Part shown: piece by piece, positions 1 through 18,121 of the stretch | Numbering within the stretch: the stretch's first letter is position 1 | Layout of the letters: the number at the start of each line of letters is the position of its first letter | Assembly (NCBI GenBank): GCA_001779315.1 | Contig: MFJU01000042.1 | Span: 747-64,746 of the forward strand | From: Candidatus Gottesmanbacteria bacterium RIFCSPLOWO2_01_FULL_42_22 | Lineage (GTDB): Bacteria; Patescibacteriota; Microgenomatia; 2-02-FULL-39-11 | Direction: 5' to 3' | Length of the DNA: 64,000 nucleotides | Notes under the pieces: generated by a model | Told to the model about the DNA's origin: nothing | What the model saw: only the letters and a program-made list of their open reading frames with translations | Database searches by the model: none | Position numbers and translations under genes: made by a program

Positions 1-202
1 ATTCATGTTAATATATTATAAAACTTACCAAGCTATTGATCCACACAAAGAATGGATGTTCATAACATAAAAAATGTTGAAATTAGAATAGAATAGTCCG
101 AAAATCGTCTTTTTAGTCCTCGTAGCTTTAGCGAAGTGGACCATCAGGGATGCCGAGTTTTTTTAGAGCTTCATAACTGTCTAAATAGTTAACTTCTCCA
201 TT

Positions 203-211
203 TGTTATAAT
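203..211 (+). promoter_or_regulatory. extended -10 promoter element TGTTATAAT upstream of 218-703
   Basis: TGnTATAAT 7 nt before the ATG; same 9-mer as in repeat right modules D and F. Confidence 0.45.
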
Positions 212-217
212 AATTTC

Positions 218-703
218 ATGAATAAAAAACAACCTATCGCTTATGTTATTTGCGGATTTATCGGAGCAGGTAAGACGACTTTTGCCAGAAAACTGGAAAA
301 GGAAACAAAAGCAATAAGAATTACTAAAGACGAATGGATAATAAAAATTTTCGGAAATAAAATAACGTCAGACAAAAACTTTGAAGTGTATGACAAAAAT
401 ATAACTGAGTTGGCAACGAATATTGCTTTCAAAATTCTGAAAGCCGGTAAAGATGTGATTTTAGATGAAGGTTTTTGGGTTAAATCCCAAAGAGATGATA
501 TAAAGAAGAAAATACTTCAAGTAGGAGCAAAGCCAATTTTTTATTATGTCGAAACCTCGGTAGAGAAAATGAAAGAAAGGGTTATTAACCGAAGCAATAA
601 TCCCACAAAAGATTCATTTGAAATAAATGAAGAAATGTTTGATAAATATTTAAAATATTGGGAACCACCAAAGAAAGAAGAAGGTATTCTTTTAGCTGCT
701 TAA
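218..703 (+). CDS. P-loop NTPase / predicted kinase (AAA_33-like)
   Basis: Walker A GFIGAGKTT near the N-terminus; 161 aa; TGTTATAAT extended -10 at 203-211 just upstream. Confidence 0.6.
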   Translation: MNKKQPIAYVICGFIGAGKTTFARKLEKETKAIRITKDEWIIKIFGNKITSDKNFEVYDKNITELATNIAFKILKAGKDVILDEGFWVKSQRDDIKKKILQVGAKPIFYYVETSVEKMKERVINRSNNPTKDSFEINEEMFDKYLKYWEPPKKEEGILLAA

Positions 704-784
704 CGAATTAAAGTTCGGATTGCTTCAGCTAGGGGAAGCGAGAATTAAGTATAGATTGTCACAACGATCTAGTATATTAGAAAG

Positions 785-1660
785 TCAATCTTTAGAAGCA
801 ATAAAATCTCGCAGTTTTTCCGCAGTATTAAAATCAGGATTGACCGACAATGCTGCTGCAACCCTTGCTGTCATTAATGCCTTATCCATGGGATTTAAAA
901 CATCAGGAAAGTCCATTCTTGATGCTTCTTCTTGCATTTCTGATCCAGGAAATCCATTCAGAAATGCTGCGATTTGATCATGTACAAGTTCAACATTACA
1001 TACAACATCCCTTCTTATTTTTGCAGTAGGTGAACTTAACAAGCTGTTATTTTCTTCAGATGCAGGAGATATAAACCGTCCGGTTTCCAGCTGAATTTTA
1101 TCAAGTTGATCCAAAGTTAATCGTGATTTGGTTCTCGGTTGCTCAGTTGGTACATTTTCCGCAATTTTAAAATCACCTTTAAGCACTCCGGCATCTTTTA
1201 ATTGATCAATTACCTGCTGAACTTTTTGTCGAGCAAGAGGAGAATTATTTAGTAATTCTATAAGTGTTCTTGGGTGAACTTGAAAATAGGTCGCCATTCC
1301 CAAATTAAATTTAAAATCACAACTTCTCAGTATGATATGTTCCGGATCGGACTTACTTGTCTCAACAAGGAGAGCATCTGGTATTTTTAAGGATCCTGCT
1401 TGTTTTTTAACTGCCTGATCTACATCCAACGAAATTATATGGCTTATTTCATGATCACCTTCTAATCTAAGAGCAAATCGAGCAAGCTCTGGTTGTGACC
1501 GAAATTCTTCCAGTCGAGGAAGGCACACTCTTTCTTCCCATGCCTTACCTATCCAGTTGCTGAATCCATTTCCTTTTGCATCAGCAGCTTCTCTTAACGC
1601 TTTTAATCCTTGTTGTCCAAAATGGACTTCTACTTTTCCTTCTGGTGATGAACTTAACAT
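785..1660 (-). CDS. hypothetical protein with HExxH motif (possible metallopeptidase-like)
   Basis: 291-aa ORF; GDHEISH (HExxH) motif; no other recognisable family signature. Confidence 0.35.
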   Translation of the reverse strand: MLSSSPEGKVEVHFGQQGLKALREAADAKGNGFSNWIGKAWEERVCLPRLEEFRSQPELARFALRLEGDHEISHIISLDVDQAVKKQAGSLKIPDALLVETSKSDPEHIILRSCDFKFNLGMATYFQVHPRTLIELLNNSPLARQKVQQVIDQLKDAGVLKGDFKIAENVPTEQPRTKSRLTLDQLDKIQLETGRFISPASEENNSLLSSPTAKIRRDVVCNVELVHDQIAAFLNGFPGSEMQEEASRMDFPDVLNPMDKALMTARVAAALSVNPDFNTAEKLRDFIASKD

Positions 1661-1814
1661 ATTTCAAAATTATTACTTAATCTATTTATAATTCAAAACT
1701 CACAATATGACAATAATTACCAGGATTCAAAAGTGGTTCGAAAATCGTCAAAGAATCAAGTTCTTTGTAAACCCATCCCGGAAGCTAAACCTGAGTATAA
1801 AAAATTCAAACATC

Positions 1815-1868
1815 GTCCATCCCTCGGAGCAATTTCAACGGTTTTCTATGGAATTCTTCGGATTTTAT
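1815..1868 (+). repeat. intergenic repeat copy A (right module only, degenerate)
   Basis: CGGAGCAATTTCAACGGTTTTCTATGGAATTCTTCGGATTTT. Confidence 0.6.
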
Positions 1869-1913
1869 TTTTTACCACATTTTCATCCGTGAATAATTTG
1901 TTAAAATAACAAT

Positions 1914-2525
1914 ATGAACAAAATAAAAGTTACCTCTGGGATGGCAATGTCCCTTGATGGGTTCACTGCTGGCCTAAATCAAAGTTTCGAAAAACCATTT
2001 GGAGACAATTTCGATTTAGACTTACTGGAGCGTTGGATGTTTGCTGAGCCGGAAAAGCATAAACATAAAAAAGAAATCGACGCTATTTTGGATGCAGGTG
2101 CGTTCATAATGGGTAATAATATGTTTGGCCCTAAAGACAGAAGAGACAATCCAGAATGGAAAGGGTGGTGGGGTGATAATCCCCCGTATCACGCTCCCGT
2201 TTTTGTGCTCTCCCACAAGGAGCGAGAACCGATAGAAATGGAAGGCGGAACGACATTCTTTTTTGTGACTGACGGTATTGAATCTGCTCTTTTACAAGCG
2301 AAAGAAGCAGCAGGTAATCGGAATGTAAAGATTAATGGAGGAGCAAATACCGTCAATCAATATTTAAAAGCTGGCTTTATCGATGAGCTATGGTTACATA
2401 TAGTTCCCGTAACCATTGGCGCAGGCACTCGACTTTTTGAGGAAGTGCCTCCTCTCAATCTCGAACCGATTGAAGTGAGTGGGACCAGTATGGTGACACA
2501 CATTAGATACAAAGTTTTAAAATAG
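1914..2525 (+). CDS. RibD C-terminal domain / dihydrofolate-reductase-like protein (YwjB family)
   Basis: 203 aa; N-terminal VTSGMAMSLDGF and C-terminal NGGANTVNQYLKAGFIDELWLHIVPV are typical of RibD_C reductases. Confidence 0.6.
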   Translation: MNKIKVTSGMAMSLDGFTAGLNQSFEKPFGDNFDLDLLERWMFAEPEKHKHKKEIDAILDAGAFIMGNNMFGPKDRRDNPEWKGWWGDNPPYHAPVFVLSHKEREPIEMEGGTTFFFVTDGIESALLQAKEAAGNRNVKINGGANTVNQYLKAGFIDELWLHIVPVTIGAGTRLFEEVPPLNLEPIEVSGTSMVTHIRYKVLK

Positions 2526-2548
2526 GGATTTCCACTGTATTAGCTTTT

Positions 2549-2665
2549 AGCTTCTTTATTTCATTCCATCTTTGTCTGAGTTCTCCAATATATCGTAAGT
2601 CCTGAAAAGCATGGATAATTGAGGCGTAATCAATAGTTATATTAATCCTAGGGATGGGGAGCAAG
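2549..2665 (+). repeat. intergenic repeat copy B (left module)
   Basis: ...TTCCATC...GTCCTGAAAAG...TATTAATCCTAGGGATGGGGAGCA. Confidence 0.8.
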
Positions 2666-2739
2666 TTAGACCCATAAAATTCCTTGTTGTAACTTTTTAT
2701 TAATAAAAGTATAAAATCCTGATATAATACATAATAATT

Positions 2740-3051
2740 ATGTATACCCTAGATCAGTTATTCACCTTTGGAAATTGGTTTGTGAAACTAGGCAAGGAAG
2801 AAGATTTTAAGAAGGAATGGAAAGAGTTTGCGGACTGGAGTATACGAAATAAACTAGGATCTAATACTCCATATCTCCTCCAAGATATTACCAATGTAAG
2901 ACACTTCATTTCTTTTGGTCCTTGGCCTGATGTACAAACAATCAAAAAATGGCGGCAAACGGAAGAGTTTCAACTTTTTGTAGAAAAAGCAAAAGAACTT
3001 TGCGAGAGATTTGAACCCAACACCCTAAAACTTGTAGCTCTGGGAGAGTAG
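2740..3051 (+). CDS. small hypothetical protein (possible ABM/Dabb-like ferredoxin-fold protein)
   Basis: 103-aa ORF bounded by repeats B and C; TGATATAAT promoter at 2720-2728. Confidence 0.35.
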   Translation: MYTLDQLFTFGNWFVKLGKEEDFKKEWKEFADWSIRNKLGSNTPYLLQDITNVRHFISFGPWPDVQTIKKWRQTEEFQLFVEKAKELCERFEPNTLKLVALGE

Positions 3052-3096
3052 ACTTCATAACTAACATTTTCAGAAATAAAAATCGTTATTTTGTAA

Positions 3097-3228
3097 CTTC
3101 TTTATCTCCTCCCACCTCTGCCTCAATTCACCAACCTGCCTGCCGGCAGGCAGGTATACCTTATGTCCTGAAAAACCCGGATAATTGAACTGAAATCTCG
3201 GGTTTATTAATCCTAGGGATGGGGAGTA
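3097..3228 (+). repeat. intergenic repeat copy C (left module with 20-bp palindrome)
   Basis: CTCCTCCCACCTCTG...CCTGCCTGCCGGCAGGCAGG (3135-3154)...AAAACCCGGATAATTGAACTGAAATCTCGGGTTTATTAATCCTAGGGATGGGGAG. Confidence 0.85.
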
Positions 3229-3256
3229 AAACAAATAATAATTAATAACCTCAATA

Positions 3257-3286
3257 TTGACATTCTGACAAATTCATCTGTATAAT
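3257..3286 (+). promoter_or_regulatory. sigma70-like promoter TTGACA-N18-TATAAT upstream of brnT
   Basis: TTGACA 3257-3262 and TGTATAAT ending at 3286; ATG at 3298. Confidence 0.5.
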
Positions 3287-3297
3287 GCAGTATATAC

Positions 3298-3594
3298 ATG
3301 AGGATTCTTAAAGAGCCATTGGAATTTCAGTGGGACAAAGGAAACGTAGGAAAAAGTTATAAGAAACATAAAGTAAAAGACAAAGAAGCGGAAGAGCCAT
3401 TTTTTGATAAAAGACATAAAATCTTCAAGGACAAGCTGCATTCTAAGGGTGAAGAAAGAAACAGAATTGCAGGTAAAACAAAAAAAGGGAGACTTTTATT
3501 TATAGTATTTACCATAAGAGAAAACAGAATAAGGATAATATCTGCTCGTGATATAAATAAAAAGGAGGTGTATCTATATGAAGAAAAGGCTTAA
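3298..3594 (+). CDS. brnT: BrnT-like toxin (DUF497) of type II TA system
   Basis: 98 aa; EFQWDKGN...KHKV...EAEE...RIISARDINKKE matches the BrnT signature; overlaps the downstream antitoxin by 17 nt. Confidence 0.75.
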   Translation: MRILKEPLEFQWDKGNVGKSYKKHKVKDKEAEEPFFDKRHKIFKDKLHSKGEERNRIAGKTKKGRLLFIVFTIRENRIRIISARDINKKEVYLYEEKA

Positions 3595-3844
3595 ACTGCC
3601 CGTCTTTAAAAACGAAGACGAAGAAAGAAAATTCTGGGCGAAAGTTGATTTGTCTGAATATTATGATGCTAATGATCTAGAGTTAGTCAGTTTTCCTAAT
3701 TTAAAACCGACAACTAAACCTGTATCAATCAGAATTCCTGAATATTTACTCAACAGAGTTAAAGAGGAGGCAAATGAACTTAATATTCCTTATCAGACAT
3801 TAATTAAACAGTATATTCAAAAAGGTGTTTTTTCTTCTCAATAA
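3578..3844 (+). CDS. brnA: BrnA-like antitoxin
   Basis: 88 aa; N-terminal KLPVFKNEDEERKFW and C-terminal RHH-like region; paralog of 7278-7559. Confidence 0.75.
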   Translation: MKKRLKLPVFKNEDEERKFWAKVDLSEYYDANDLELVSFPNLKPTTKPVSIRIPEYLLNRVKEEANELNIPYQTLIKQYIQKGVFSSQ

Positions 3845-3878
3845 ATCCGAATTAGGTTAAGAAGGGTTCATTTCTTAA

Positions 3879-4000
3879 AAGTTCGGATAATATCCCACAG
3901 GGGGAGCAATTTCTACGGATTTCTTCGGATTTTTTATTTTTATATACTCCATTCGGTTTTCACAGGGTTCAAACTTGGGTATTGTTATAATACTTGATAA
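3879..4000 (+). repeat. intergenic repeat copy D (truncated left module plus full right module with promoter)
   Basis: GGGGGAGCAATTTCTACGGATTTCTTCGGATTTT...TGTTATAAT (3983-3991). Confidence 0.8.
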
Positions 4001-4699
4001 ATGCTTCTTAATGCTAAACCTCTAATCTCTTGCGTTATTCCTTTTTGGAATGAAGGCTCTCGTCTCTATGCAGTACTAGATGAGGTAAGTAAAACTAAAA
4101 ATATTTTTGAAGTAATTTGTGTTGATGATGCTTCATATGAAAATAATTCAGATGAAATACGAAAACACTATCCTAATTTTAAACTTCTTCGGCTAAAAAA
4201 GAACTATGGAAAGTCCGGTGCTATCCTTGAAGGATTAAAGATAGTAAAGGGTAATTTAATTTTACTTCTCGATGCCGACATTCGTAACCTTAATCATAAT
4301 GAAATTGAAAAAGCAATAAAAATTGTCCAACAAAATCCAGACGTAGACATGCTTATCTTAAGAAGAATTAAAGCACCATTATTTGTAAAACTTACTCGAG
4401 GTGATGTTTTGGCATCAGGAGAAAGAATTGTTAAATTAAATTACTTGATGAATGTTTTAAAAAATTCAACGAAAGGATGGGAGCTTGAATCAAAAATAAA
4501 TCTGTTTATGTTTAATAATAATAAGAAAGTTTACTGGTTTCCACATTCTGGGATTAATACTCATTGGAAATGGGGCATAAAAGCGGATTTTAAATATCAT
4601 AAGAAAAAGATAGCTGATATTTACTCAATCGGTTTTACTAATCTACTTAAATTATTCTTATTTTTTGGAAAAGAAGAAGTAAAATACCAAAAAATCTAA
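4001..4699 (+). CDS. family 2 glycosyltransferase (GT-A fold)
   Basis: ISCVIPFWNE...VICVDDAS...LLLDADI motifs; paralog of 29604-30284. Confidence 0.7.
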   Translation: MLLNAKPLISCVIPFWNEGSRLYAVLDEVSKTKNIFEVICVDDASYENNSDEIRKHYPNFKLLRLKKNYGKSGAILEGLKIVKGNLILLLDADIRNLNHNEIEKAIKIVQQNPDVDMLILRRIKAPLFVKLTRGDVLASGERIVKLNYLMNVLKNSTKGWELESKINLFMFNNNKKVYWFPHSGINTHWKWGIKADFKYHKKKIADIYSIGFTNLLKLFLFFGKEEVKYQKI

Positions 4700-4763
4700 G
4701 AATATAAAAAATTGAAAGTTAGACTGTTTTGGAAAAGATAATCTCGCAAGTAGTTTTCAGTTC

Positions 4764-4826
4764 TGATAATGACCGATTGGGGGAGTAATTTCTACGGATT
4801 TCTCCGTTTTTCTTCGGATTTTATAA
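4764..4826 (+). repeat. intergenic repeat copy E (junction plus right module)
   Basis: GGGGGAGTAATTTCTACGGATTTCTCCGTTTTTCTTCGGATTTT. Confidence 0.75.
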
Positions 4827-4868
4827 ATTAATATACAATTATATACTTATCACCTATAATAACCCTTA

Positions 4869-6032
4869 ATGTTAAGAAAAGTATTCCCATTGATATTATT
4901 TTTACTTATTACAACTCCTGTTCAGGCTGTTAGTTGGCCGCCTGAGGTCAAACCGGAACAGGGAAGAGCATCCGGTACGCTAGGAATCGGGGATGATGAC
5001 AAGCTAAACGTCACCATCGACTTTTGGAATGTGGGGGTGGTGGGCGGCGGTGATTACGGGAAAGTCATAGTTGACCTCGGATGTACGCAAAAAACTATTG
5101 GTGATGGGTGGCAATGTGTAGCAGATGATGAGCCTCCTGAAATTGGAACTTTTAGCGGTGGGCCTAATGGGGAAATTACCATAAACGGAGAAACAAGCAT
5201 CCAACTGGTTAATGGAACTTATTTTAAATCTAATCTTGATAAAACATTCCAGGCAACTGTAGAGAATCCTGAAATATTTTCAAAATACAGATGGAGTATG
5301 GATGAATCGGTTCCGATCCCCGAAATTAAGGAAGGGAAATATGAGGTAGAAACCGCCGGTGCTGCAGTATTTAATGATCTTTATGGGCAGGTGGAAGTTA
5401 ATATTCCTCGTCCGGACGGAACCTATGATGAAGAGGAATGGAATCTAGCTAAAATAGACATGAAGTTGCCACCCGGCACGCGCATTAAAGTGAGTGAAAA
5501 AAGCGGTTTGATGCTTGCATTCACCGATAATCAAACAAATATTACCGTAGGACCGGAAACAGAAATCGTGCTGGTTGCAGTGGAACCGCAAGATACCGTG
5601 ATTAAACTGCTGTGGGGGAATCTGAAGGCCAATGTCAAAAAGATGATGAAGGACGGATCAATGGAAGTAGAAATGAGCCAGGCAGTTGCGGGAATTAAAG
5701 GAACCCAATTTATCTTAAATGAGACAAAGACAGAGTCTTCAATTTGGGTTACCGAAGGAACTGTTAAATTCACCAGCAAGAGTACAGGCAAATCGGTGGA
5801 TGTATCCAGAGGAGAAGCAGTAATTGCATCTGCCAAAGGTCTGTCAGAAAAAACAATCTTTGATCCGGTTGAAGAAGAAAAGAAATGGCAGGAGTTTGCA
5901 GATAATTTTAAGAAAACAAATACTTCTATTGCCGGTAATAACAATAGTATGTATATAGTAGTGGGAATTGTTTTTGCTGCTGCAATAATTGGTTTCCTTA
6001 TATTAAAAGTTAGGAAAACTAAGCGAGCTTGA
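4869..6032 (+). CDS. secreted protein with C-terminal TM anchor; C-terminal domain shared with paralogs
   Basis: N-terminal signal peptide; C-terminal hydrophobic anchor MYIVVGIVFAAAIIGFLIL; the last ~130 aa are homologous to 6324-6680 and to a relic at ~18296. Confidence 0.45.
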   Translation: MLRKVFPLILFLLITTPVQAVSWPPEVKPEQGRASGTLGIGDDDKLNVTIDFWNVGVVGGGDYGKVIVDLGCTQKTIGDGWQCVADDEPPEIGTFSGGPNGEITINGETSIQLVNGTYFKSNLDKTFQATVENPEIFSKYRWSMDESVPIPEIKEGKYEVETAGAAVFNDLYGQVEVNIPRPDGTYDEEEWNLAKIDMKLPPGTRIKVSEKSGLMLAFTDNQTNITVGPETEIVLVAVEPQDTVIKLLWGNLKANVKKMMKDGSMEVEMSQAVAGIKGTQFILNETKTESSIWVTEGTVKFTSKSTGKSVDVSRGEAVIASAKGLSEKTIFDPVEEEKKWQEFADNFKKTNTSIAGNNNSMYIVVGIVFAAAIIGFLILKVRKTKRA

Positions 6033-6049
6033 GAGAGGAGGCGCGCAAT

Positions 6050-6256
6050 AATTTCCTTATTTCCACCCATCCCTGTCTTAATTCCCCAATATATCTTAAA
6101 TCCTGAAATACCCGGGTAATTGAACTGTAATCTGCGCTTATATTAATCCTAGGGACGGGGAGCACTTTCTACCGATTTCTGCGGATTTTTTATTTTCATA
6201 AACTCCATTCGGTTTTCACAGGGTTCAAACTTGGGTATTGTTATAATACTTGATAA
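6050..6256 (+). repeat. intergenic repeat copy F (full left and right modules)
   Basis: CCACCCATCCCTG...TATTAATCCTAGGGACGGGGAGCACTTTCTACCGATTTCTGCGGATTTT...TGTTATAAT (6239-6247); right part about 96% identical to copy D. Confidence 0.85.
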
Positions 6257-6323
6257 ATGCTTCTTAATGCTAGGGACTAAGGATCCAAAATCTGGATTTA
6301 ATAAAGAGTACGACAGTTTTGAA

Positions 6324-6680
6324 ATGCAGATGGCCAAGCTCAGTGCAAAATTGAAAGGCACGACAGTAGTCGTAAAAGAAGATGGAGAAACCAGCAGCAT
6401 AAAAGTGATCGAAGGTGTGGCAGAAGTCACGGACATACAAACTGGCAAAACAGTTGAGATAAGCGAGGGTAAGATGATTGCCGCGACGGATACAGGCATC
6501 GGCGAGGTACAGGCTTTTGATGTCAACGCTGAAAACGAAAAGTGGCAGGATTTTACAGACGAAATAGGTAAAACAGGTACCAATCAAAAAAACTATCTGT
6601 ATATCTTAGTAATTCCGATAATACTGTTAGCTACTATAATCGCTGTTGTATTAGCATTAAAAAAGAAAAAAAGCGCTTAA
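6324..6680 (+). CDS. truncated paralog of the 4869-6032 C-terminal domain with TM anchor
   Basis: EKWQDFTDEIGKT vs EEKKWQEFADNFKKT plus a C-terminal TM helix. The track ORF at 6231 starts inside the repeat, so start at internal Met 6324 is preferred. Confidence 0.4.
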   Translation: MQMAKLSAKLKGTTVVVKEDGETSSIKVIEGVAEVTDIQTGKTVEISEGKMIAATDTGIGEVQAFDVNAENEKWQDFTDEIGKTGTNQKNYLYILVIPIILLATIIAVVLALKKKKSA

Positions 6681-6714
6681 AGAATTTCACTATTTAAAGA
6701 GTGCCTTCAGGTTG

Positions 6715-6860
6715 AAGTTTTTTAATCTCCTCCCACCTCTGTCTCTGCACTCCAATAAACCGAAAATCCTGAAAAACCCGGATAATTAAACTGAATGAAA
6801 TCGCGGGTTTATTAATCCTAGGGACGGGGAGCAATTTCTACGAATTTACTATGGAGATTG
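6715..6860 (+). repeat. intergenic repeat copy G
   Basis: CTCCTCCCACCTCTG...AAAACCCGGATAATTAAACTGAATGAAATCGCGGGTTTATTAATCCTAGGGACGGGGAGCAATTTCTACGAATTT. Confidence 0.85.
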
Positions 6861-6879
6861 CTTCTAATTTTTAACTTCC

Positions 6880-6888
6880 TGATATAAT
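6880..6888 (+). promoter_or_regulatory. extended -10 TGATATAAT upstream of the YciI-like gene
   Basis: Same 9-mer at 2720-2728 (before 2740) and 20061-20069 (before 20076). Confidence 0.4.
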
Positions 6889-6914
6889 CACCTTATTATT
6901 AACTTCAAAAACTT

Positions 6915-7256
6915 ATGCAATTTCTTGTAATCGGAAAAGACGGCAAAGATGAAAAGGCGCTGGAGCGAAGACTGGTAGCTCGAGAAGCTCATATTAAGTT
7001 GGGTGATGAGATGGAGAAATCAGGTGATCGATGGTATGGAGCGGTTCTTTTGGACGATAACAATAAAATGATAGGGTCTTTGGCAGTGATGGATTTTCCT
7101 TCTGAAAAAGAGTTATATGAATGGCTGAAGCGTGAGCCTTATATAACTGGTAAAGTCTGGGAAACAGTGGAAGTTTATAAATGCAATGTTAAAAATCCCT
7201 GGAAGTTTAGCCGTCCGGAATCTTTCTTTAAGGAAAGAGAAAAACTGAATAAGTAA
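6915..7256 (+). CDS. YciI-like protein
   Basis: 113 aa; MQFLVIGKDGKDEKALERRLVAREAHIK...LLDD pattern typical of YCII-related domain. Confidence 0.55.
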   Translation: MQFLVIGKDGKDEKALERRLVAREAHIKLGDEMEKSGDRWYGAVLLDDNNKMIGSLAVMDFPSEKELYEWLKREPYITGKVWETVEVYKCNVKNPWKFSRPESFFKEREKLNK

Positions 7257-7277
7257 ATTTTCAACTGATGCAATATT

Positions 7278-7559
7278 TTACTGATTCAGGCCAAGTTCCT
7301 GTTTTACCTTCTCACTTAATATAATTTTCACCAGAGATTGATAGGGAACGTCTCTTTTGTTAGCCAGAGTTTTAAGAGCCGCAATAAGCGACTCGGGTAA
7401 TCTGATGGAAACCGTTCTGGTTGACGGTTTAAGATTTTGTAAGACCGGATTAATAATAGCCTGACTCATATCAAAATAATCAGTTAAATCATGGCGTGCA
7501 AAGAAATCTCTTTCCTCATCCTCATTTTTAAATTTAGGTAATTTTTTAATTTGTTTCAT
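7278..7559 (-). CDS. brnA: BrnA-like antitoxin (second copy)
   Basis: KLPKFKNEDEERDFF N-terminus; overlaps BrnT start by 4 nt. Confidence 0.75.
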   Translation of the reverse strand: MKQIKKLPKFKNEDEERDFFARHDLTDYFDMSQAIINPVLQNLKPSTRTVSIRLPESLIAALKTLANKRDVPYQSLVKIILSEKVKQELGLNQ

Positions 7560-7906
7560 TTTGATTTATCACCTCTTTTCTTAATTTGTTTATTGTTTAA
7601 ACTTTCAGCTAATTTATAAGCCAGTTTGTCTTTTTTACCCTGATCCCTTGCCGAAATAATTCTGATTTTGTCTTTTCGAATTGTAAAATATACAGCTAGT
7701 TGTCTGCCTTTGTTAGTTTTACCCAATGCACCCCACCTGTTTTCAGTCTGTGAATGTTGTTTGTTTTCAATGAAAACAAGTGGGTTATTACTGAAAATTT
7801 CTTCACATTCCCGATACTCAACATTATGTTTTGCTTGATTTTTTTTAATATTAGCTTCATCCCAATCAAAACCATGCAACTTATTTAAATCAAAACTTTT
7901 ACTCAT
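7556..7906 (-). CDS. brnT: BrnT-like toxin (second copy)
   Basis: FDWDEANIKKNQAKHNV...RIISARDQGKKD; DUF497 signature. Confidence 0.75.
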   Translation of the reverse strand: MSKSFDLNKLHGFDWDEANIKKNQAKHNVEYRECEEIFSNNPLVFIENKQHSQTENRWGALGKTNKGRQLAVYFTIRKDKIRIISARDQGKKDKLAYKLAESLNNKQIKKRGDKSK

Positions 7907-7950
7907 AGGCTATTTATGTATACAATGGTACAATACATTTAGCCTCATGT

Positions 7951-8050
7951 CAAGGTATGGATAATAGATGTGTAGTCGATGGTTATATTAATCCTAGGGA
8001 CGGGGAGCAAATTCTATGGATTTCTTTGGGTTTCTTCGGATTTATTCGAA
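7951..8050 (+). repeat. intergenic repeat copy H (5'-truncated)
   Basis: TATTAATCCTAGGGACGGGGAGCAAATTCTATGGATTTCTTTGGGTTTCTTCGGATTT. Confidence 0.8.
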
Positions 8051-8054
8051 TTTT

Positions 8055-8393
8055 TCAACCGCTTTTTAATTCACTTTTATAGTACTTCTCAGCAAATTTC
8101 GCGATCTCATTAATAATGGGGAGTATGCCACGCCCTTTTTTAGTTAGTTCATAAACAACTGAAATTTTATCAAGAGTTTCTTCTTTTCTAATGACTATTT
8201 GCTCTTTTTCAAGTTTTTTTAATCTGTCTGCCAGAGTTGTGGGGTTTATGCCAGATATCGACCGTTGAATTTCATTAAACCGCATTGAGCTATTACCTAA
8301 ATTGCTTATTATGCATAAAATCCACGCATCACCAATCATATTGATTGCGTTGTTTAATTCTTCCGGAATATGGCGATTATTACTTGTTGACAT
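8055..8393 (-). CDS. HxlR-family transcriptional regulator
   Basis: 112-aa wHTH; divergent from the quinone oxidoreductase. Confidence 0.7.
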   Translation of the reverse strand: MSTSNNRHIPEELNNAINMIGDAWILCIISNLGNSSMRFNEIQRSISGINPTTLADRLKKLEKEQIVIRKEETLDKISVVYELTKKGRGILPIINEIAKFAEKYYKSELKSG

Positions 8394-8469
8394 ACTATAA
8401 ATAGTGTAGTACTCTATTTTTTAGACTGCTATAAATTATATACTAAATTTTAGGAATAGTCTAACTCTT

Positions 8470-9408
8470 ATGAAAGCTATACAGATTAATAGATACGGCG
8501 GAAACGATGTTTTGGAACTTAACAATAATGCTCCAAAGCCCACCATAAAACAGGGGCAAATATTACTGGAAAATTACGCAGCCAGCGTAAATCCAATTGA
8601 TTGGAAGTTCCGGGCAGGATATTTGCAGAAAATGGCACCGGTTCCTTTGCCGGTTACTCTTGGAGGGGATTTTGCAGGCAAAATCTCAGAAGTAGGAACA
8701 GGTGTTTCTGAATTTAAGGTAGGTGACGAGGTATACGGGCAAGCAATTATTTTAAATGGTGGTTCCGGATCATTTGCTGAACAAGTTTCAGCAAATGCCG
8801 AAAATACCGCTCTTAAACCAAAAACAGCGAGTTTCGAGGAAGCAGGAGCTTTGCCACTTGTTGGAGTCAGCGCTTTGCAAGCTTTAGGAGAGCATATCAA
8901 ATTGAAAAGTGGGCAAAAAATCCTTGTCCATGGTGGAGCAGGAGGTATTGGACACATGGCGGTCCAATTGGCAAAAGTGTTTGGTGCATATGTTGCAACA
9001 ACCATAAAGACAGATGATGTGGAGTTTGTAAAAAATCTTGGTGCGGATCAAGCGATTGATTACAAAACTCAAAAATTTGAAAATATTCTTAAAGACTTTG
9101 ATGCGGTTTTTGATACAGTAGGTAGTGAAACAACAGATAAATCATTTGGAGTTCTCAAAAAAGGAGGAGTAATTGTATCTATGTTTGGAGAGCCGAATCA
9201 AGAGTTGGCACAAAAATATGGAGTTACTGCTATTGGGCAAGGAACACGAACTGATACTGTTCATTTAGCTCGCATCGCAGAAATTGTTGATAGTGGAAAA
9301 ATAAAAGTGCATCTTGATAAAGTTTTTTCGTTCGAAAACGCGAAAGAAGCATTTATATATCAGGAAGAAGTTCATCCTCGAGGTAAAGTTGTCATAAAAA
9401 TCAAATAA
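8470..9408 (+). CDS. NADPH:quinone oxidoreductase (MDR / zinc-ADH superfamily)
   Basis: MKAIQINRYGG...GGAGGIGHMAVQLAK Rossmann motif; 312 aa. Confidence 0.75.
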   Translation: MKAIQINRYGGNDVLELNNNAPKPTIKQGQILLENYAASVNPIDWKFRAGYLQKMAPVPLPVTLGGDFAGKISEVGTGVSEFKVGDEVYGQAIILNGGSGSFAEQVSANAENTALKPKTASFEEAGALPLVGVSALQALGEHIKLKSGQKILVHGGAGGIGHMAVQLAKVFGAYVATTIKTDDVEFVKNLGADQAIDYKTQKFENILKDFDAVFDTVGSETTDKSFGVLKKGGVIVSMFGEPNQELAQKYGVTAIGQGTRTDTVHLARIAEIVDSGKIKVHLDKVFSFENAKEAFIYQEEVHPRGKVVIKIK

Positions 9409-9429
9409 ATACCGGTCTTTTTGTCTTTT

Positions 9430-9468
9430 TAACCCCATCCCTTCTCAGTCTCAATTCTCCTATATACC
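9430..9468 (+). repeat. intergenic repeat copy I (left-end fragment only)
   Basis: AACCCCATCCCTTCTCAGTCTCAATTCTCC resembles the 5' end of copies B and F. Confidence 0.45.
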
Positions 9469-9514
9469 TTGTTGACATCATAGTGGACATACTATATGAT
9501 ATTTACATATAGAT

Positions 9515-9889
9515 ATGCCAAAAGTAACAATTTCAAAACCAAGATCATTTGGTAATGTTGAAAAGTTTATTGAGCCTTGTATTCTTCTTCTTTTATCTAA
9601 AGATTCCTCTCACGGGTATGGTCTCATGGATGGTTTGGGGAAACATTGCGGTCACAATGTTGATATCGGCAATCTTTACCGCACGCTACGTAAGATGGAG
9701 AAAAATAAATGGATAGTTTCCGACTGGCAAAAGAATAAGATAGGACCTGATAAACGGACATACAAAATTTCTCCAAACGGAGTGACGATATTACACGAAG
9801 CGGCTTCATCGCTTAAAACCGCACAGCGTCTTCTCTCCCGGTTTCGAAATGGTTATAACAGGATTTATGATAATGGAGTAACTGTATGA
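9515..9889 (+). CDS. PadR-family transcriptional regulator
   Basis: LLLLSKDSSHGYGLMDGL...YRTLRKMEKNKWI pattern. Confidence 0.6.
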   Translation: MPKVTISKPRSFGNVEKFIEPCILLLLSKDSSHGYGLMDGLGKHCGHNVDIGNLYRTLRKMEKNKWIVSDWQKNKIGPDKRTYKISPNGVTILHEAASSLKTAQRLLSRFRNGYNRIYDNGVTV

Positions 9890-10209
9890 AGCTTACAATT
9901 GTGCTTTCCACAACTCATACAGAAACCAACTGGAATGCTTTAAGACTAGCCAATCTGGCTTTGAAAAAGGGAGATGAGGTGAGTTTATTTCTTTTAGGTG
10001 AAGCAGTTGAGTATGAAAATGCCAGTAGTGATAGGTTTAATATAAAGCAGCAAATTGATACTTTTCTAAAATCAGATAAAGCAAAAATTGTCGCCTGCGG
10101 AACCTGTATGAATTTAAGAAACCAGGAAAGCACGCAAACCTGTCCTAGGGGAGGATTGGAGGATTTTTATTCTCTTATATCAACAAGTGACAAAGTATTA
10201 ACATTTTAA
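9886..10209 (+). CDS. DsrE/DsrF-like protein
   Basis: 107 aa; KIVACGTCMNLR; overlaps the PadR stop. Confidence 0.55.
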   Translation: MKLTIVLSTTHTETNWNALRLANLALKKGDEVSLFLLGEAVEYENASSDRFNIKQQIDTFLKSDKAKIVACGTCMNLRNQESTQTCPRGGLEDFYSLISTSDKVLTF

Positions 10210-10217
10210 ATTACAGA

Positions 10218-10832
10218 ATGAAAAAGTTAATCGTACTCGTTTTGCTTGCTGCATTTCTTATTAATCCTTCTGCAATTTTTGCCCAACCAATGACAGGTAA
10301 GCAATTTCAATCTGCTACTGATGATCATACAGCCGGTGAAGAAGCGGAGGGAAAAGAAATATGGGAAAGATTACAGTCGAAGCAAATAATTTGCAATGAA
10401 CTTTCATATGGAAACTTCGGTTCTTTAGGAGAATACTATATGGGTCAAATGGTAGGAGATACCGGCAGGCATGCAGTGATGAATCAAATGATGACGGCAA
10501 TGTTAGGAGAGACAAGCGAAGAAAAGATGCATGTAGTAATGGGGAAAAGAATGAGCGGTTGTTATACCGGGACGAAGGGAGGTGGTAATCCGATGATGGG
10601 TTATGGTTGGAATAACATGATGGGCGGTTGGGGAGGTTTTGGTTTAGGCTGGGTATTTATGATTTTATTCTGGGCGCTGATTATTTTGGGCGTAGTTGGA
10701 CTTATTCGTTATTTAAGCGGGCAACACAATGCGGATAAGGGTAAAACCCCTCTGGATATTCTTAGAGAACGCTATGCAAAAGGCGAGGTAGACAAAAAGG
10801 AATTTGAAGAAATGAAGAAGGATTTAAGATAA
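10218..10832 (+). CDS. secreted/membrane Gly/Met-rich protein with C-terminal SHOCT domain
   Basis: Signal peptide; TM helix; C-terminal LRERYAKGEVDKKEFEEMKKDL. Confidence 0.5.
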   Translation: MKKLIVLVLLAAFLINPSAIFAQPMTGKQFQSATDDHTAGEEAEGKEIWERLQSKQIICNELSYGNFGSLGEYYMGQMVGDTGRHAVMNQMMTAMLGETSEEKMHVVMGKRMSGCYTGTKGGGNPMMGYGWNNMMGGWGGFGLGWVFMILFWALIILGVVGLIRYLSGQHNADKGKTPLDILRERYAKGEVDKKEFEEMKKDLR

Positions 10833-10876
10833 AATTTTTAAGAAAATCAGACCGGGTTTGCAGTCTCTTTATCTCT

Positions 10877-11242
10877 TCATAACCTTTTATTGGCCATTGC
10901 ATCAGCGCGTTTTTTACCCCAGTCACAGGCAAGTTTTAGAATAGGTGTTAAAGTTTGTCCTGCAGGTGTTAATGAATATTCAACTTTTGGAGGAATTTGT
11001 CTATATATTTTTCTTGAAACGATATTATCTCCTTCGAGTTCCCGTAGCTGGCGAGTCAGCATCCTTTGACTGCAATCTGGTATAAGTTTTCGCAATTCTC
11101 CAAATCGCTTTTTGCCATCAACTAGGTTCCAAAGAATTAGTGTTTTCCACTTGCCTCCAATTAACTCAAGTGTAAATGCAATGTAGCAGAAGTAATTTTT
11201 ATCCCCGACAGTGAAGTTTGCCATTGGTATACAAAATGTCAC
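10877..11242 (-). CDS. HxlR-family transcriptional regulator
   Basis: LELIGGKWKTLILWNL...RMLTRQLRELEGDNIVSRK. Confidence 0.7.
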   Translation of the reverse strand: MTFCIPMANFTVGDKNYFCYIAFTLELIGGKWKTLILWNLVDGKKRFGELRKLIPDCSQRMLTRQLRELEGDNIVSRKIYRQIPPKVEYSLTPAGQTLTPILKLACDWGKKRADAMANKRL

Positions 11243-11320
11243 TATACAACAATTTTGTGCGTACTTGCAAGAATAAAATTAGGGTTTAACATAAATAAAA
11301 GATAAGGAGGTGAATATAAA

Positions 11321-11683
11321 ATGGATAAGAAAATGGAAGTAAAAAATTTTACCTCTCCGGATGAAGTGAGGACATTCGAAAAGGGAAAGGTAGAACTGGT
11401 TAAAATCGGAGGCGCAATGGTTGGCAAAGCAACTTTTGAACCGGGATGGAAATGGTCTTTACATGTAAAATCACTGGCTAAAACTGAATGGTGCGAAGCT
11501 CCCCATTTCCAATACCTTATTTCGGGAACATTACACGTAGTAATGGCTGACGGTACTGAAACAGACTTAAAACCCGGCAGTGTATCCCTGCTGCCATCAG
11601 GCCATGATGCTTGGGTGGTTGGAAACGAACCGGTAGTTGGGGTAGATTTTCAGGGAATGGTTGACTACGCAAAAAAAGCTTAA
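11321..11683 (+). CDS. cupin domain protein
   Basis: 120-aa cupin_2-like; divergent from HxlR; Shine-Dalgarno AAGGAGG upstream. Confidence 0.6.
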   Translation: MDKKMEVKNFTSPDEVRTFEKGKVELVKIGGAMVGKATFEPGWKWSLHVKSLAKTEWCEAPHFQYLISGTLHVVMADGTETDLKPGSVSLLPSGHDAWVVGNEPVVGVDFQGMVDYAKKA

Positions 11684-11785
11684 AGACCAAATTATTAGAA
11701 TACACAACGTATATGATTGCAAGTAGCCCATCGGAAAAATTCGAAGGGTTGCTTTATGAAAAATTAACTATTGTCCGGATTGCAG

Positions 11786-11900
11786 TTTCCTAATCTTCTC
11801 CCACTGTTGTCGTAATTCCCCAATAATCTTCAAGTCCTGAAAAACCCGGATTATTGAGGTAAAATCGCGGGTTTATTAATCCTCAGGTACGGGGAGCATT
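11786..11900 (+). repeat. intergenic repeat copy J (left module)
   Basis: CTTCTCCCACTGTTGTCGTAATTCCCCAATAATCTTCAAGTCCTGAAAAACCCGGATTATTGAGGTAAAATCGCGGGTTTATTAATCCTCAGGTACGGGGAGCA. Confidence 0.85.
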
Positions 11901-12006
11901 TGATATCCCTCTGTTTGGAGTCAGGATGGTGTGAGCTCCCGAATGAGGGATTATTTAAGGAGAAAATAGAAAAAGAAAATGACTAAATTTGAAGCTAAAA
12001 GAGAAC

Positions 12007-12034
12007 CGTCCCCTATACTACGTCCCCTATACTA
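12007..12034. repeat. tandem 14-bp direct duplication CGTCCCCTATACTA x2
   Basis: Seen directly, immediately left of the GC-richer 12.1-14.9 kb segment. Confidence 0.7.
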
Positions 12035-12107
12035 TAATTACAGTTAACCTGATATTTCGTAATAGGAAGCCGAAATAGGCAGTCTCTCACTGCTGGGCTC
12101 AGCTGTC

Positions 12108-12695
12108 TTACCAGTCTTTCGGATCTGACCAGTGGGTTCTAGCCATCACCGCTACTTCGAAATTCGGATCATCTTTGGCTTGTAATCCAACCTTTGCTAC
12201 CGGATTGTTTCCGCCTCCGAAATTTCTGGTGACCACTTTAGCACCAAGGCTGTCCGCTGCAGAATTTGCACTCTCCAGCAATTTATCCAGCAAGCCCTGC
12301 GGGTCATCAGTGACGAAATCCAGATGCATCCCTCTCACGCCATTGCCTTCTTTTCCGGCTCTATGGAATTCAACGAATATATCTTGGCCGCCCTCAACCG
12401 GAATCCTCAGGTATCTTCTGAAATGGGTGACGCCGCCGGCAACCAGGTTATTGGCGATAAGCTTGTCACCGAATTGGCCTGTTGCTTCTTCAAATGATTT
12501 ATTATCGGGATAAGTTATGCCGATGTGATGGTAAAAAGTAGGGTGACCGGCTGCCCATTCGCTGACAGGAGTCAGCAGGGCATTGAGAAAATCAGGTCTT
12601 TCGATAATTTTTTCCGCAGGGCTCATTCCCTCCCTGATGGTTTCGTCTCTTAACCCGGTAATGGAGCTGACTGTATTTAAAATATTTTCATTCAT
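12108..12695 (-). CDS. hypothetical protein
   Basis: 195-aa ORF in a locally GC-richer segment; no family recognised. Confidence 0.3.
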   Translation of the reverse strand: MNENILNTVSSITGLRDETIREGMSPAEKIIERPDFLNALLTPVSEWAAGHPTFYHHIGITYPDNKSFEEATGQFGDKLIANNLVAGGVTHFRRYLRIPVEGGQDIFVEFHRAGKEGNGVRGMHLDFVTDDPQGLLDKLLESANSAADSLGAKVVTRNFGGGNNPVAKVGLQAKDDPNFEVAVMARTHWSDPKDW

Positions 12696-12721
12696 AGAGT
12701 TTTATATAATATTGATAATGA

Positions 12722-13723
12722 TTACCGGACGACCCTTACCTCCAGGGGCAGCTCGATATTATGTTCTTTTAATACTACTTCCTGGATTAAGTCCGCGACT
12801 CTTAGATAACCCTCTGCCGAGCCGCTGCCTGTATTCCCGATAATATTGGCCGTAGATTTTGCATGGACCATTCCGCCGATCATGATAGTCTCCGGAAGTC
12901 TTCCGGTCATGCCGATAAGCTGCGTGGCCGATATTCCGTTGTATCCGGGATGGTTAAGCACGAATGTATAACCCAATGTTGCGCCGACCGACCACGGGTT
13001 TTTTTCCTTGTTCTTTTTCCTCATTTCCTGACGGCCTAAATTGATGACCGTTCTGGCTTTGGCGATTTTTTCCGGATCTCCTTCTGCCAGCTGGAACATC
13101 ACGTTAAGGACTATTTTTGTATTATCCGGTTGCGAAAAAACACTTTGGCGGTCATGCATTTCCAGCTGTGACGTGTCCATCCGCACGACATCACCGTTTT
13201 CATCGACAACCTCGACCCAACTCAAAACCTGTCTTATAGATTCAGGCAGTTCGGTATCAGTGATCCCAAACGCTTCGAAGATTTTCGTATAGTTATGAAT
13301 CGGATGCCAGGCATCCGTCACTACCGCCCCGGCTGTGCTGCCGGGAATATCCCTGGCAAATTCCAGTCCGGTTAGATTACCACTTGCCGATTCTCTGGAA
13401 ACTGCCGAAATTTTAGTTCCGCCCCCCGCGCAGATTTGTGCGGTTCCTATATTCAGATGGATACCGTTCATCTTACGGCTGTCAATTACGACAGTTTTCA
13501 TGGGATCCAGTTCGGTACCCATTAAAAGCGTATTGCTGCCACCGCCGTGAACATGAAAGGTCTGCTGGTGATCATTAAGCAGCCGGTGTAATGTGGAAGC
13601 CTGTTCTGTATTGGGATAGACAACCAGCTGCGCCCGGCTTTTGAGCAGGGTTGAGCTTACTTCCGCATTATTGACAAAATCAATACCCAATGATTGCAGG
13701 CCTGTCTCCAGTCTTGAAAGCAT
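12722..13723 (-). CDS. murB: MurB-like FAD-binding oxidoreductase (UDP-N-acetylenolpyruvoylglucosamine reductase family)
   Basis: HVHGGGSNTLL and LTGLEFARDIPGSTAGAV motifs match the MurB FAD-binding domain; C-terminal MurB_C-like region. Confidence 0.6.
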   Translation of the reverse strand: MLSRLETGLQSLGIDFVNNAEVSSTLLKSRAQLVVYPNTEQASTLHRLLNDHQQTFHVHGGGSNTLLMGTELDPMKTVVIDSRKMNGIHLNIGTAQICAGGGTKISAVSRESASGNLTGLEFARDIPGSTAGAVVTDAWHPIHNYTKIFEAFGITDTELPESIRQVLSWVEVVDENGDVVRMDTSQLEMHDRQSVFSQPDNTKIVLNVMFQLAEGDPEKIAKARTVINLGRQEMRKKNKEKNPWSVGATLGYTFVLNHPGYNGISATQLIGMTGRLPETIMIGGMVHAKSTANIIGNTGSGSAEGYLRVADLIQEVVLKEHNIELPLEVRVVR

Positions 13724-13930
13724 AGACCTATAATATACACATATATATATTATAAGTCAAACTATAAATGATTACCCGAAATTACTTTAATATCTGGAAA
13801 TAAGCATTATTAGTTGACCTTTATGAAAATATATGATAAAATCAACGAACCTTATAATAGAATTTATAAGGTTATTTAATATAATAATGTATCCCTCAGT
13901 AAGTCGGGGGATTTTTTTAATAAACGAAAT

Positions 13931-14887: not shown

Positions 14888-15044
14888 GTCTGCAGTCAGT
14901 TCGGGGTAGCAATTCTAAATTTCAGCACGATTGTTTCCAAAAGGGATTCTCATAACTTCATTATTGTTCTCCGGTGTCAGTACATCCTTATTATTATGCT
15001 TATCTGTTTGTGGGGGATATCATTAGCAAATCCATTATTTCAAT

Positions 15045-15263
15045 GTGTCCGTTGTATGGAGGAGATTTAATATCAGCGACAGAATGATTCAGAAAATCAT
15101 CGGGGAAGAGGCAACAGAGACGGTTATTGCGGCTAAAAATAATAAGAAGAAAAGAATTATTGAAGAAACTGCTGATTTATTCTTCCACTTGCTTGTACTT
15201 CTTTCTCAATTTGATATAAAACCGGATGAAATGGAAATGGAATTACAAAAGCGGAAAAAATAG
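15045..15263 (+). CDS. HisE/MazG-like NTP pyrophosphohydrolase fragment
   Basis: GEEATETVIAAKNNKKKRIIEETADLFFHLLVLL resembles phosphoribosyl-ATP pyrophosphatase. GTG start; too short for full HisE, so possibly truncated. Confidence 0.4.
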   Translation: MSVVWRRFNISDRMIQKIIGEEATETVIAAKNNKKKRIIEETADLFFHLLVLLSQFDIKPDEMEMELQKRKK

Positions 15264-15289
15264 CTTTTAAAATTTAATATGTAGGTAGT

Positions 15290-15483
15290 AGCTTCCTAAT
15301 CTCCTCCCACTGTTGTCGTAATTCCCCAACCTGCCTGCCGGCAGGCAGGTATACTTCAAGTCCTGAAACACCCGGATAATTAAGGTGAAATCGCGGGTTT
15401 TTTAATCCCAGGGACGGGGAGCACATTCACTTCGTTCAGTATAAACAATTTCTACGGATTTCTTTGGGTTTCATCGGAATTTC
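15290..15483 (+). repeat. intergenic repeat copy K (full, with palindrome 15330-15349 and 24-bp insertion at junction)
   Basis: CTCCTCCCACTGTTGTCGTAATTCCCCAACCTGCCTGCCGGCAGGCAGG...CGCGGGTTTTTTAATCCCAGGGACGGGGAGCA...ATTTCTACGGATTTCTTTGGGTTTCATCGGAATTT. Confidence 0.85.
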
Positions 15484-18087: not shown

Positions 18088-18121
18088 CTCCTTTCAACAG
18101 AAATTATTGAGTGTCATTGCC

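Follow-up and report, generated by a model that had tools for sequence, protein, structure and literature searches.

Several kinds of integrase-less unit are known to be mobilised in trans, among them the cis-mobilizable elements (CIMEs) that flank integrative and conjugative elements (ICEs), the integrative mobile elements that exploit Xer (IMEXs) and the pdif modules, and such units can accrete in tandem at one chromosomal site. Chromosomal integrons typically contain toxin-antitoxin pairs, small enzymes and regulators. Clusters of attC sites lacking integrase (CALINs) are common (Cury et al., 2016; PMC4889954), and in the tycheposons of Prochlorococcus new elements integrate at a tRNA and push the older ones inward, with partial tRNAs between them (10.1101/2020.12.28.424599). 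In this work we analysed a repeat of ~135 nt in a stretch of 64,000 nt, called here the window, from Candidatus Gottesmanbacteria bacterium RIFCSPLOWO2_01_FULL_42_22 (assembly GCA_001779315.1, contig MFJU01000042.1, positions 747-64,746, forward strand). The feature under study, window 3097-3228, lies inside copy C (3089-3235) of this repeat. Gottesmanbacteria belong to the candidate phyla radiation, and in this genome the repeats probably serve as att-type sites between small integrase-less cassettes, lined up in a chromosomal array that is anchored at the 3' end of a tRNA-Asn(GTT) gene. This array is best explained as one that functions like an integron or a tandem tRNA island while being a member of neither as defined.

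The locus resembles sedentary chromosomal integrons and CALINs in that its short cassettes follow each other in one direction, each ending in a site of ~60-140 nt with complementary ends. The sites are alike within an array, toxin-antitoxin pairs are found among the cassettes, genomes differ in the order of their cassettes, additions are seen proximally and no integrase is nearby, as in CALINs. As in an integron-like array, at least two sites are co-oriented and the short cassettes are the units of rearrangement between genomes. In contrast with integrons and CALINs, the sites have neither R''/R' boxes nor a strong single-strand hairpin, the presumed crossover core corresponds to a tRNA 3' end, the proximal site is a tRNA and not attI, many cassettes have their own promoter-like site, and ~40% of genes are on the opposite strand. 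With tycheposons the locus shares the 3' part of a tRNA as target, a presumed inward shift of older units by successive integrations, units split by partial tRNA copies, and a conserved location with variable content. Its units, however, are 0.5-3 kb long and have 1-3 cargo genes; none holds phage or plasmid genes or a gene for integrase, replication or excision, and they are separated by a conserved ~135-nt site that extends far beyond the tRNA fragment and departs from the tRNA in a regular manner. Of the hallmarks of a tRNA island, an intact tRNA at the end and direct repeats of the tRNA 3' part are found here, but no element-encoded integrase. Modules of the CIME, IMEX and pdif kinds (compared here from general knowledge) are likewise integrase-less and bounded by recombination sites; the present locus differs from them by its target, the 3' end of a tRNA, and by its much longer sites, in which no dif-like 11-6-11 arrangement was recognised on inspection by eye only.

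Results

Copies and anatomy of the repeat

The loci used for comparison were contigs that carry the array or its flanks (L001-L023) and IMG/VR contigs that carry a 20-bp palindrome described below (L024-L058). A profile of repeat copies run with nhmmer over the window found seven full copies of ~135 nt (E 1e-36 to 1e-41), at 2542-2678, 3089-3235, 6044-6179, 6708-6860, 11776-11926, 15283-15450 and 16315-16463, every one on the + strand, and a left-truncated copy at 7943-8024; shorter forms that share the right end were seen at 712-745, 1803-1869, 3845-3932 and 4757-4821. The same search gave no copy past 16.5 kb, hence none in the 19-64 kb part of the window, and none on the - strand. The motif GGGGAGYA is found 11 times on the + strand of the window, ten of them at repeat ends, and 0 times on the - strand, for 3.0 +/- 1.9 expected. 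In an alignment of 26 copies from several genomes, only seven of which come from the window, the mean column identity is 60% and GGAG is invariant; the invariant right end of the repeat, TTAATCCTAGGGAYGGGGAGCA, resembles the 3' end of tRNA-Asn. Two Candidatus Gottesmanbacteria assemblies and a number of metagenome contigs contain the core pattern TTAATCCTAGGGAYGGGGAG, as co-oriented clusters between small genes, and all exact core matches of the reference genome, GW2011_GWA2_43_14, are on one contig.

A sequence-only reading of 3097-3228 had proposed a portable terminator plus promoter, and the repeat features that it listed are all present in the sequence. It had also described a 5' end inverted relative to the core, which the family alignment bears out, as TCTCC.TCC in the 5' arm is complementary to GGG..GGGGA in 93% of the alignment cells. 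This outer stem of eight pairs is the sole helix kept by RNAalifold; it is nearly invariant and without covariation, and its invariant T-G pair and frequent C-G/U-G alternation favour pairing of the top strand or of RNA. Another possible inner stem, between alignment columns 75-86 and 124-136 and paired in 72% of cells, was set aside because its covariation (1/500 shuffles) was judged too weak. Many copies continue into a right module, made up of two or three CTnCGGATTT units phased by 10 bp, and the CGGATTT motif, found at 3916/3926, 4795/4815, 6182, 8037 and 15455, returns inverted (AAATCC, AATCC) inside the left module. The CGGATTT direct repeats reported earlier are thus real, but 3097-3228 comprises the left module only, and copy C has no CGGATTT after its core. 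In other genomes only ~25 nt after the core are conserved (ATTTCTACGGATTTCTTCG). The ~135-nt site differs consistently from tRNA, with TTAATCCTAGGGAC in the repeats versus TTCGAATCCTACC in the tRNA. The core GGGGAGCA is flanked by the imperfect inverted arms ATCCTAGGGAC and ATTTCTACGGAT, an arm-core-arm layout that would be that of a tyrosine-recombinase core site with an 8-bp overlap, and the GGATTT/AAATCC motifs may be protein-binding sites. In two different genomes, a ~24-nt insert (CATTCACTTCGTTCAGTATAAACA) is present between core and right module (window 15424-15447 and L015, after copy 711-855), and the L015 version contains a perfect CACTG-CGTT-CAGTG hairpin.

The features of copy C and of the DNA that follows it are:
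3091-3134, + strand: left arm of copy C, with TTGTAAC at 3091-3097 and TCTCC-T-CCC at 3105-3113, which pairs with 3216-3225
3135-3154, no strand: palindrome CCTGCCTGCCGGCAGGCAGG, a separate insert in copy C, also at 15330-15349 (copy L) and 16361-16380 (copy M)
3173-3205, + strand: hairpin AAACCCGGAT / ATC.CGGGTTT, the 'terminator' of the sequence-only reading, in copies C, G, K, L and M only
3207-3228, + strand: mimic of the tRNA-Asn 3' end, TTAATCCTAGGGATGGGGAGTA, with the 8-bp core GGGGAGTA at 3221-3228 as presumed crossover region
3257-3286, + strand: promoter-like TTGACA-18-TATAAT, cassette-specific and outside the repeat, 12 nt before the ATG at 3298 of BrnT, where Pfam gives BrnT/CopG antitoxin matches

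The array starts at a tRNA-Asn gene

Among the contigs that carry the first gene of the window, L001 matches the window with 99.5% identity over 9970 nt and reaches 9.8 kb further upstream. It carries tRNA-Asn(GTT) at 9086-9158, where the array begins, 625 nt before window position 1. This tRNA ends with GGTTCGAATCCTACCGGGGGAGCA and the repeats end with GGTTATATTAATCCTAGGGACGGGGAGCA, the core GGGGAGCA being the tRNA acceptor 3' strand followed by the discriminator base and CA. Two other contigs, L002 and L003, are 100% identical to the window and have, at the position of the tRNA, a full repeat and a small ORF preceding it. L001 and L002 have the same sequence from GGGGAGCAAAAGCC on but unrelated sequences ahead of it, and the window's own strain has one cassette and repeat more than L001 at this tRNA-proximal junction. 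We take both junctions to be real because a 141-mer assembly cannot join sequences via 8-10 shared bases; therefore the array begins where tRNA-Asn ends, and one tRNA-proximal cassette distinguishes the strains. Contigs of several independent assemblies break at or beside the tRNA-proximal array edge, namely L021, L022 and, with their first bases, L002-L004, which fits strain heterogeneity there.

The likeness of the sites to the tRNA is strongest in site D, which aligns to the tRNA 3' half with a score of 36, versus 15.7 +/- 3.3 for shuffled sequences (~6 SD); copies H, G and B score 27-33. The ~10 kb upstream of the array in L001 encode DnaG, RpoD, CysS, YjbQ and tRNA-Asn. In this conserved flank (L001 1-1560) a protein of the PPS_PS family, the archaeal-type phosphopantothenate synthetases, is encoded beside a GHMP kinase, alongside the bacterial DnaG and RpoD. 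A 396-aa ORF upstream of the tRNA has no Pfam match and, by its sequence, looks like a membrane protein.

Cassettes are shared between genomes in different orders

The array carries genes for an AAA_33 kinase, RibD_C, ABM, two BrnT/BrnA pairs, GT2, two FecR-like proteins, YCII, two HxlR, ADH, PadR-DsrE-SHOCT, a cupin, MurB-like and MazG-like proteins, PIN-Phd and an RTX-like protein, that is three toxin-antitoxin pairs plus small enzymes and regulators. Homologous cassettes, with 68-85% identity by blastn, are found in other Gottesmanbacteria arrays in a different order. The FecR cassette (window 4780-6168) matches L018 8239-6857 at 75%, BrnAT (7278-7955) is present in five other loci, PadR-DsrE(-SHOCT) (9472-10878) in L007, L013 and L015, and HxlR-cupin (10895-11692) in L007 at 83%. 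Homology of the FecR cassette starts at the GGGGAG[T/C]A of the upstream site, which is of the short type in the window and of the long type in L018, and stops at GGGGAGCAnTTT of the downstream site. These boundaries and the switch point between L001 and L002 therefore place the exchange in or beside the 8-bp core.

At its distal end the array has a last degenerate site near 18815-18835, and the conserved flank starts at or before 21329. Synteny with L014 of GW2011_GWA2_43_14 covers the DEAD-box helicase (~78% aa identity in segments) and genes downstream, so that the array sits at a conserved chromosomal address. The remainder of the window encodes mostly housekeeping-type functions: an RNA helicase, BacA, a histidine kinase, hydrogenase-like and type II/IV secretion-type (pilus-like) proteins and a Y-family polymerase.

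The other sites of the window are:
1-18840, + strand: cassette array, as far as it lies inside the window
712-745, + strand: short-type degenerate site AAAGTTCGGATTGCTTCAGCTAGGGGAAGCGAG
1803-1869, + strand: site A, with degenerate core TCGGAGCA at 1824-1831 and three right-module repeats phased by 10 bp
2542-2678, + strand: long copy B, core at 2656-2663 followed by GTTAGAC, without inner hairpin or palindrome
3845-3932, + strand: short-type site D, core at 3901-3908, right module CTACGGATTT CTTCGGATTT; likeness to the 3' half of tRNA-Asn, beginning at the anticodon loop, GTTAAGAAG...GTTCGGAT...GGGGGAGCA
4757-4821, + strand: short-type site E, core at 4780-4787, three phased repeats; left boundary of the shared FecR cassette
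6044-6188, + strand: long copy F with right module, core at 6157-6164; right boundary of the shared FecR cassette
6708-6847, + strand: long copy G, core at 6826-6833
7943-8043, + strand: copy H, without left arm, core at 8002-8009, three phased right-module repeats
9426-9469, + strand: repeat remnant, left arm only, fused to the PadR promoter
10855-10880, + strand: repeat remnant after SHOCT, first ~22 nt of the left arm only
11776-11926, + strand: long copy K, core at 11891-11898; sister of copy L without the palindrome
15283-15474, + strand: long copy L, palindrome at 15330-15349, core at 15416-15423, then a 24-nt insert and the right module at 15446-15474
16315-16463, + strand: long copy M, palindrome at 16361-16380, core at 16446-16453

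Across arrays, no cassette family recurs more often than the FecR-like proteins. In the window the segment that encodes the C-terminal part of the FecR-domain protein is found three times (5869-5924, 6526-6581 and 18291-18346, 61-88% identity), the distal one being an apparent gene fragment. The ORFs at 785-1660 (-, 291 aa), 13931-14887 (+, 318 aa) and 12108-12695 (-, 195 aa) have no Pfam/NCBIfam match. The G+C content of window 12001-18000 is 42-45%, versus 35-39% in the rest of the array; this GC-richer stretch, which encodes the MurB-like, unknown 318-aa, MazG-like, PIN-Phd and RTX-like proteins, suggests cassettes that differ in origin.

Hairpin and promoters

The sequence-only reading saw in the inner hairpin an intrinsic terminator. 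In copy C this hairpin is formed by AAACCCGG (3173-3180), an 18-nt spacer and CGGGTTT (3199-3205). It folds as RNA at ~-10 kcal/mol (z -0.6 to -2, loop of 12-16 nt) in copies C, G, K, L and M of the window, but it is absent from B and F and is poorly conserved across the 26 copies, being paired in ~53-63% of cells by register. Given this lack of conservation, the long loop, the weak T-run TTTATT and a terminator scan with no site on any repeat (16 sites found in total, versus 15.3 expected), a conserved terminator role is not retained.

The proposed promoters fared differently. The extended -10 TGTTATAAT is confirmed at 3985-3993 and 6241-6249, and strong -35/-10 pairs lie just before cassette ORFs, at 3257-3286 (12/12), 2700-2728, 4832-4860 and 9472-9500, while the totals of the promoter and terminator scans both equal chance. 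The promoter-like sites belong to the cassettes and are not a portable part of the repeat: they lie in cassette-specific DNA, beyond the portion of the repeat that is shared between genomes, and no -35/-10 pair is found inside the conserved repeat. The cassettes thus probably carry their own promoters, and the repeat does not.

In six places, promoter-like -10 boxes end 7-16 nt before start codons (2700-2740, 3257-3298, 3985-4001, 4832-4869, 6871-6915 and 9472-9515), a spacing that would give leaderless or near-leaderless mRNAs without room for a Shine-Dalgarno sequence. A stretch of 116 nt, which runs from the core through right module and TGTTATAAT promoter to nucleotide 16 of the ORF, is duplicated with 96% identity at 3901-4016 and 6157-6272, before GT2 and a 149-aa FecR-like ORF; only the window's species was seen to have this duplication.

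The 20-bp palindrome

Several copies of the repeat contain a perfect palindrome, CCTGCCTGCCGGCAGGCAGG, which occurs exactly at 3135, 15330 and 16361 (0 expected in the window) and in none of the other four full copies; it is thus optional, as had been noted. The suggestion that it is separately inserted is supported by its being 20/20 identical in copies C, L and M, the flanks of which are 77-81% identical, and by its absence from copy K, the closest relative of L (88% identical overall, 97% in the left arm). The palindrome always lies between CCAA and TATA (CCAA^TATA), and comparison of copies with and without it revealed no flanking target duplication in the window. It is reproduced in four independent assemblies and is absent from every repeat copy in other genomes. 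Like the hairpin, it is a lineage-specific addition and not a conserved function of the repeat.

The same 20-mer is found in 35 stretches of ~30 unrelated IMG/VR viral contigs, which range in GC from 38-68% and have as many as six copies each, when control palindromes (same-composition and half-swapped) had 0 matches each. Palindromy rarely reaches past 20 bp in these stretches. In L048 (2239-2330), which ARAGORN calls as a tRNA, and in L025, the palindrome forms the variable arm of a tRNA-Met; in L055 it is inside a tRNA D-loop. At some of these places a short direct repeat borders the palindrome to left and right, as CACAGAGA does in L026. The 20-mer was not found in the searched literature.

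Mitochondrial GC clusters and repetitive extragenic palindromic (REP) elements with associated transposases are small mobile GC-rich palindromes. Ours is similarly discrete, perfect and GC-rich, lies in AT-rich non-coding DNA and is identical between copies with diverged flanks. It differs from them in being just 20 bp long, with no target duplication in the window and no associated enzyme identified, and in occurring in contigs of widely different GC content and also inside tRNA genes. If mobile, it would be unusually small and widespread, and possibly a mobile sequence not reported so far.

Rejected identities

Two other identities of the repeat were considered and rejected. It is not a classical attC site: R''/R' boxes are missing, with RYYYAAC and GTTRRRY together in 0/7 long window copies and no R''..R' pair overlapping a repeat, and GTT follows the core in only 5 of the 26 copies, as in the GTTAGAC of copy B. 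Its single-strand folding is no better than that of shuffled sequences (with DNA parameters, most of the 26 copies have z ~0 whichever strand is folded). No recombinase was found in the window, in the 10 kb upstream of it or in related loci and no intI/attI beside the array, and no paper on integrons in candidate phyla radiation bacteria was found in the literature searched. Neither is the repeat a tRNA pseudogene or tRNA-like RNA: Rfam gave no tRNA or other match on repeats even at E<=5, and ARAGORN recognised no cloverleaf on them at 90% thresholds. At lowered thresholds it gave only noise, at a level of 50 calls, including a sub-threshold tRNA-Asn(GTT) call at 3794-3886 that overlaps site D. 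IMG/VR viral contigs have no exact match to the repeat core, to the core with right module or to the tRNA 3' end, and therefore no phage or plasmid donor was found.

Discussion

The repeats of this locus form a single oriented array that starts at a tRNA-Asn gene. We propose that the left module, ~110 nt long, would be the right end of the upstream cassette, followed by a T-arm/acceptor-like stretch that ends in the core GGGGAGCA, and that the right module (CTnCGGATTT repeats) would be the left end of the next cassette. A recombinase encoded elsewhere would exchange strands within GGGGAGCA, circular cassettes would enter at the tRNA 3' end, shifting the older ones distally, and recombination between neighbouring sites would excise or reshuffle cassettes. 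The recombinase and the circular intermediates are inferred. More tentatively, the locus could represent a capture system analogous to integrons, with the 3' end of tRNA-Asn as primary site, integrase-less cassettes with ~135-nt sites that mimic the T- and acceptor arms of tRNA, and a recombinase encoded elsewhere, possibly of an unrecognised family; in this same tentative scheme CCTGCCTGCCGGCAGGCAGG would separately be a tiny mobile unit that invades these sites and, in the genomes of many unrelated phages, both tRNA genes and intergenic DNA.

Several observations weigh against the att-site reading. No recombinase came to light: XerD and IntI1 probes, run with phmmer against 485 ORFs of the window and related loci, gave no match, Pfam/NCBIfam scans of ~70 ORFs of the window and loci revealed none, and no unknown protein family recurs across the arrays. 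Outside the 8-bp core and AATCCTA, the likeness of the long copies to tRNA is modest (z ~2-5). Adjacency to the tRNA is seen in one species only; the tRNA end of a second species was not reached, as contigs with a YjbQ homologue are non-syntenic or end at the array edge, and walks from LamG and GT47 stopped at contig ends. Within the species, array order is constant in all six places that show it, out of 23 contigs read, including two NCBI assemblies, and the sole polymorphism seen is tRNA-proximal. Several sites are truncated (9426-9469, 10855-10880 and copy H). Finally, PadR-DsrE-SHOCT of GW2011_GWA2_43_14 (L013 1514-3193) is inverted relative to the flanking repeats, although it is co-oriented in the window, L007 and L015, and directional site-specific insertion does not predict inversion.

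Some of these points would be expected if the repeats were fossil scars, that is attL/attR leftovers of successive integrase-carrying elements or prophages at tRNA-Asn, since stripped and without present function. This is the main rival of the att-site reading, and we consider it unlikely. It would account for the tRNA 3'-end likeness with a tRNA at the array start, the truncated copies, the static array within the species and the failure to find an integrase, but stripped remnants fit poorly with a ~135-nt site that is conserved across species and always departs from tRNA in the same way, with left and right modules conserved well past the tRNA-like part, with small units that hold no phage or plasmid genes, and with the same cassettes reordered between genomes. 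That the repeat is a portable terminator plus promoter, giving each gene transcriptional autonomy, appears very unlikely to us. The hairpin of five window copies, the strong promoter-like sites 8-16 nt upstream of many cassette starts and the 96% duplication of right module and promoter agree with it; nevertheless, the hairpin is missing from copies B and F, poorly kept in the family alignment and of poor terminator type, the terminator scan has no site on the repeats, the promoters lie in non-conserved cassette-specific DNA, and tRNA mimicry, single orientation and cassette shuffling are left unexplained.

The three remaining explanations are weaker still, in the order in which we take them. 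The co-oriented sites of ~125 nt with complementary ends, the toxin-antitoxin cassettes, a GTT[A/G] right after the core in a few copies and the abundance of CALINs (PMC4889954) would suit a classical integron array without integrase, in which attC sites are recombined single-stranded by an IntI encoded elsewhere. We give this little credit given the missing boxes, the rarity of GTT after the core, the absence of a folding signal with a shared stem of only 8 bp, an invariant T-G pair that favours the top and not the bottom strand, and a tRNA-derived core with a tRNA gene, not an attI next to intI, as first site. Action at the RNA level, where the transcribed repeat would fold like the acceptor stem of a tRNA, with GCA at its end, and act as an RNase P/Z-type processing signal between cistrons, seems remote: the invariant U-G pair and the C-G/U-G alternation of the outer stem, the 3' strand GGGGA-GCA, which equals tRNA acceptor plus discriminator, and the same palindrome in tRNA loops of viral contigs point that way, but the Rfam and ARAGORN searches were negative, and the repeat has no T-arm or D-arm equivalent and no real covariation. 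Least probable of all is a dispersed selfish repeat of the miniature inverted-repeat transposable element (MITE) or REP type that sits by chance in intergenic regions. The imperfectly complementary ends, and the occurrence of an internal insert in some copies but not in others, recall such elements; against this, copies are lacking in 19-64 kb and on the minus strand and are confined to one region in the reference genome, no target duplications were seen, and copy boundaries coincide with cassette homology boundaries.

If the repeats are, as we think probable, att-type sites of a tRNA-anchored cassette array, they bear on the flexible genome of these bacteria. Their genomes are generally described as roughly 1 Mb in size, and an array of 19 kb or more, with accessory genes that can be swapped at one fixed address, would then be a notable share of the flexible genome. 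The cassettes of the array encode toxin-antitoxin pairs, regulators, redox enzymes and cell-surface enzymes, and the core pattern TTAATCCTAGGGAYGGGGAG offers a practical handle for annotating such arrays. If the sites are active, the array would be a second independent case in which to study the evolution of such platforms, integron-style capture having arisen here from tRNA-targeting recombination without IntI or attC.

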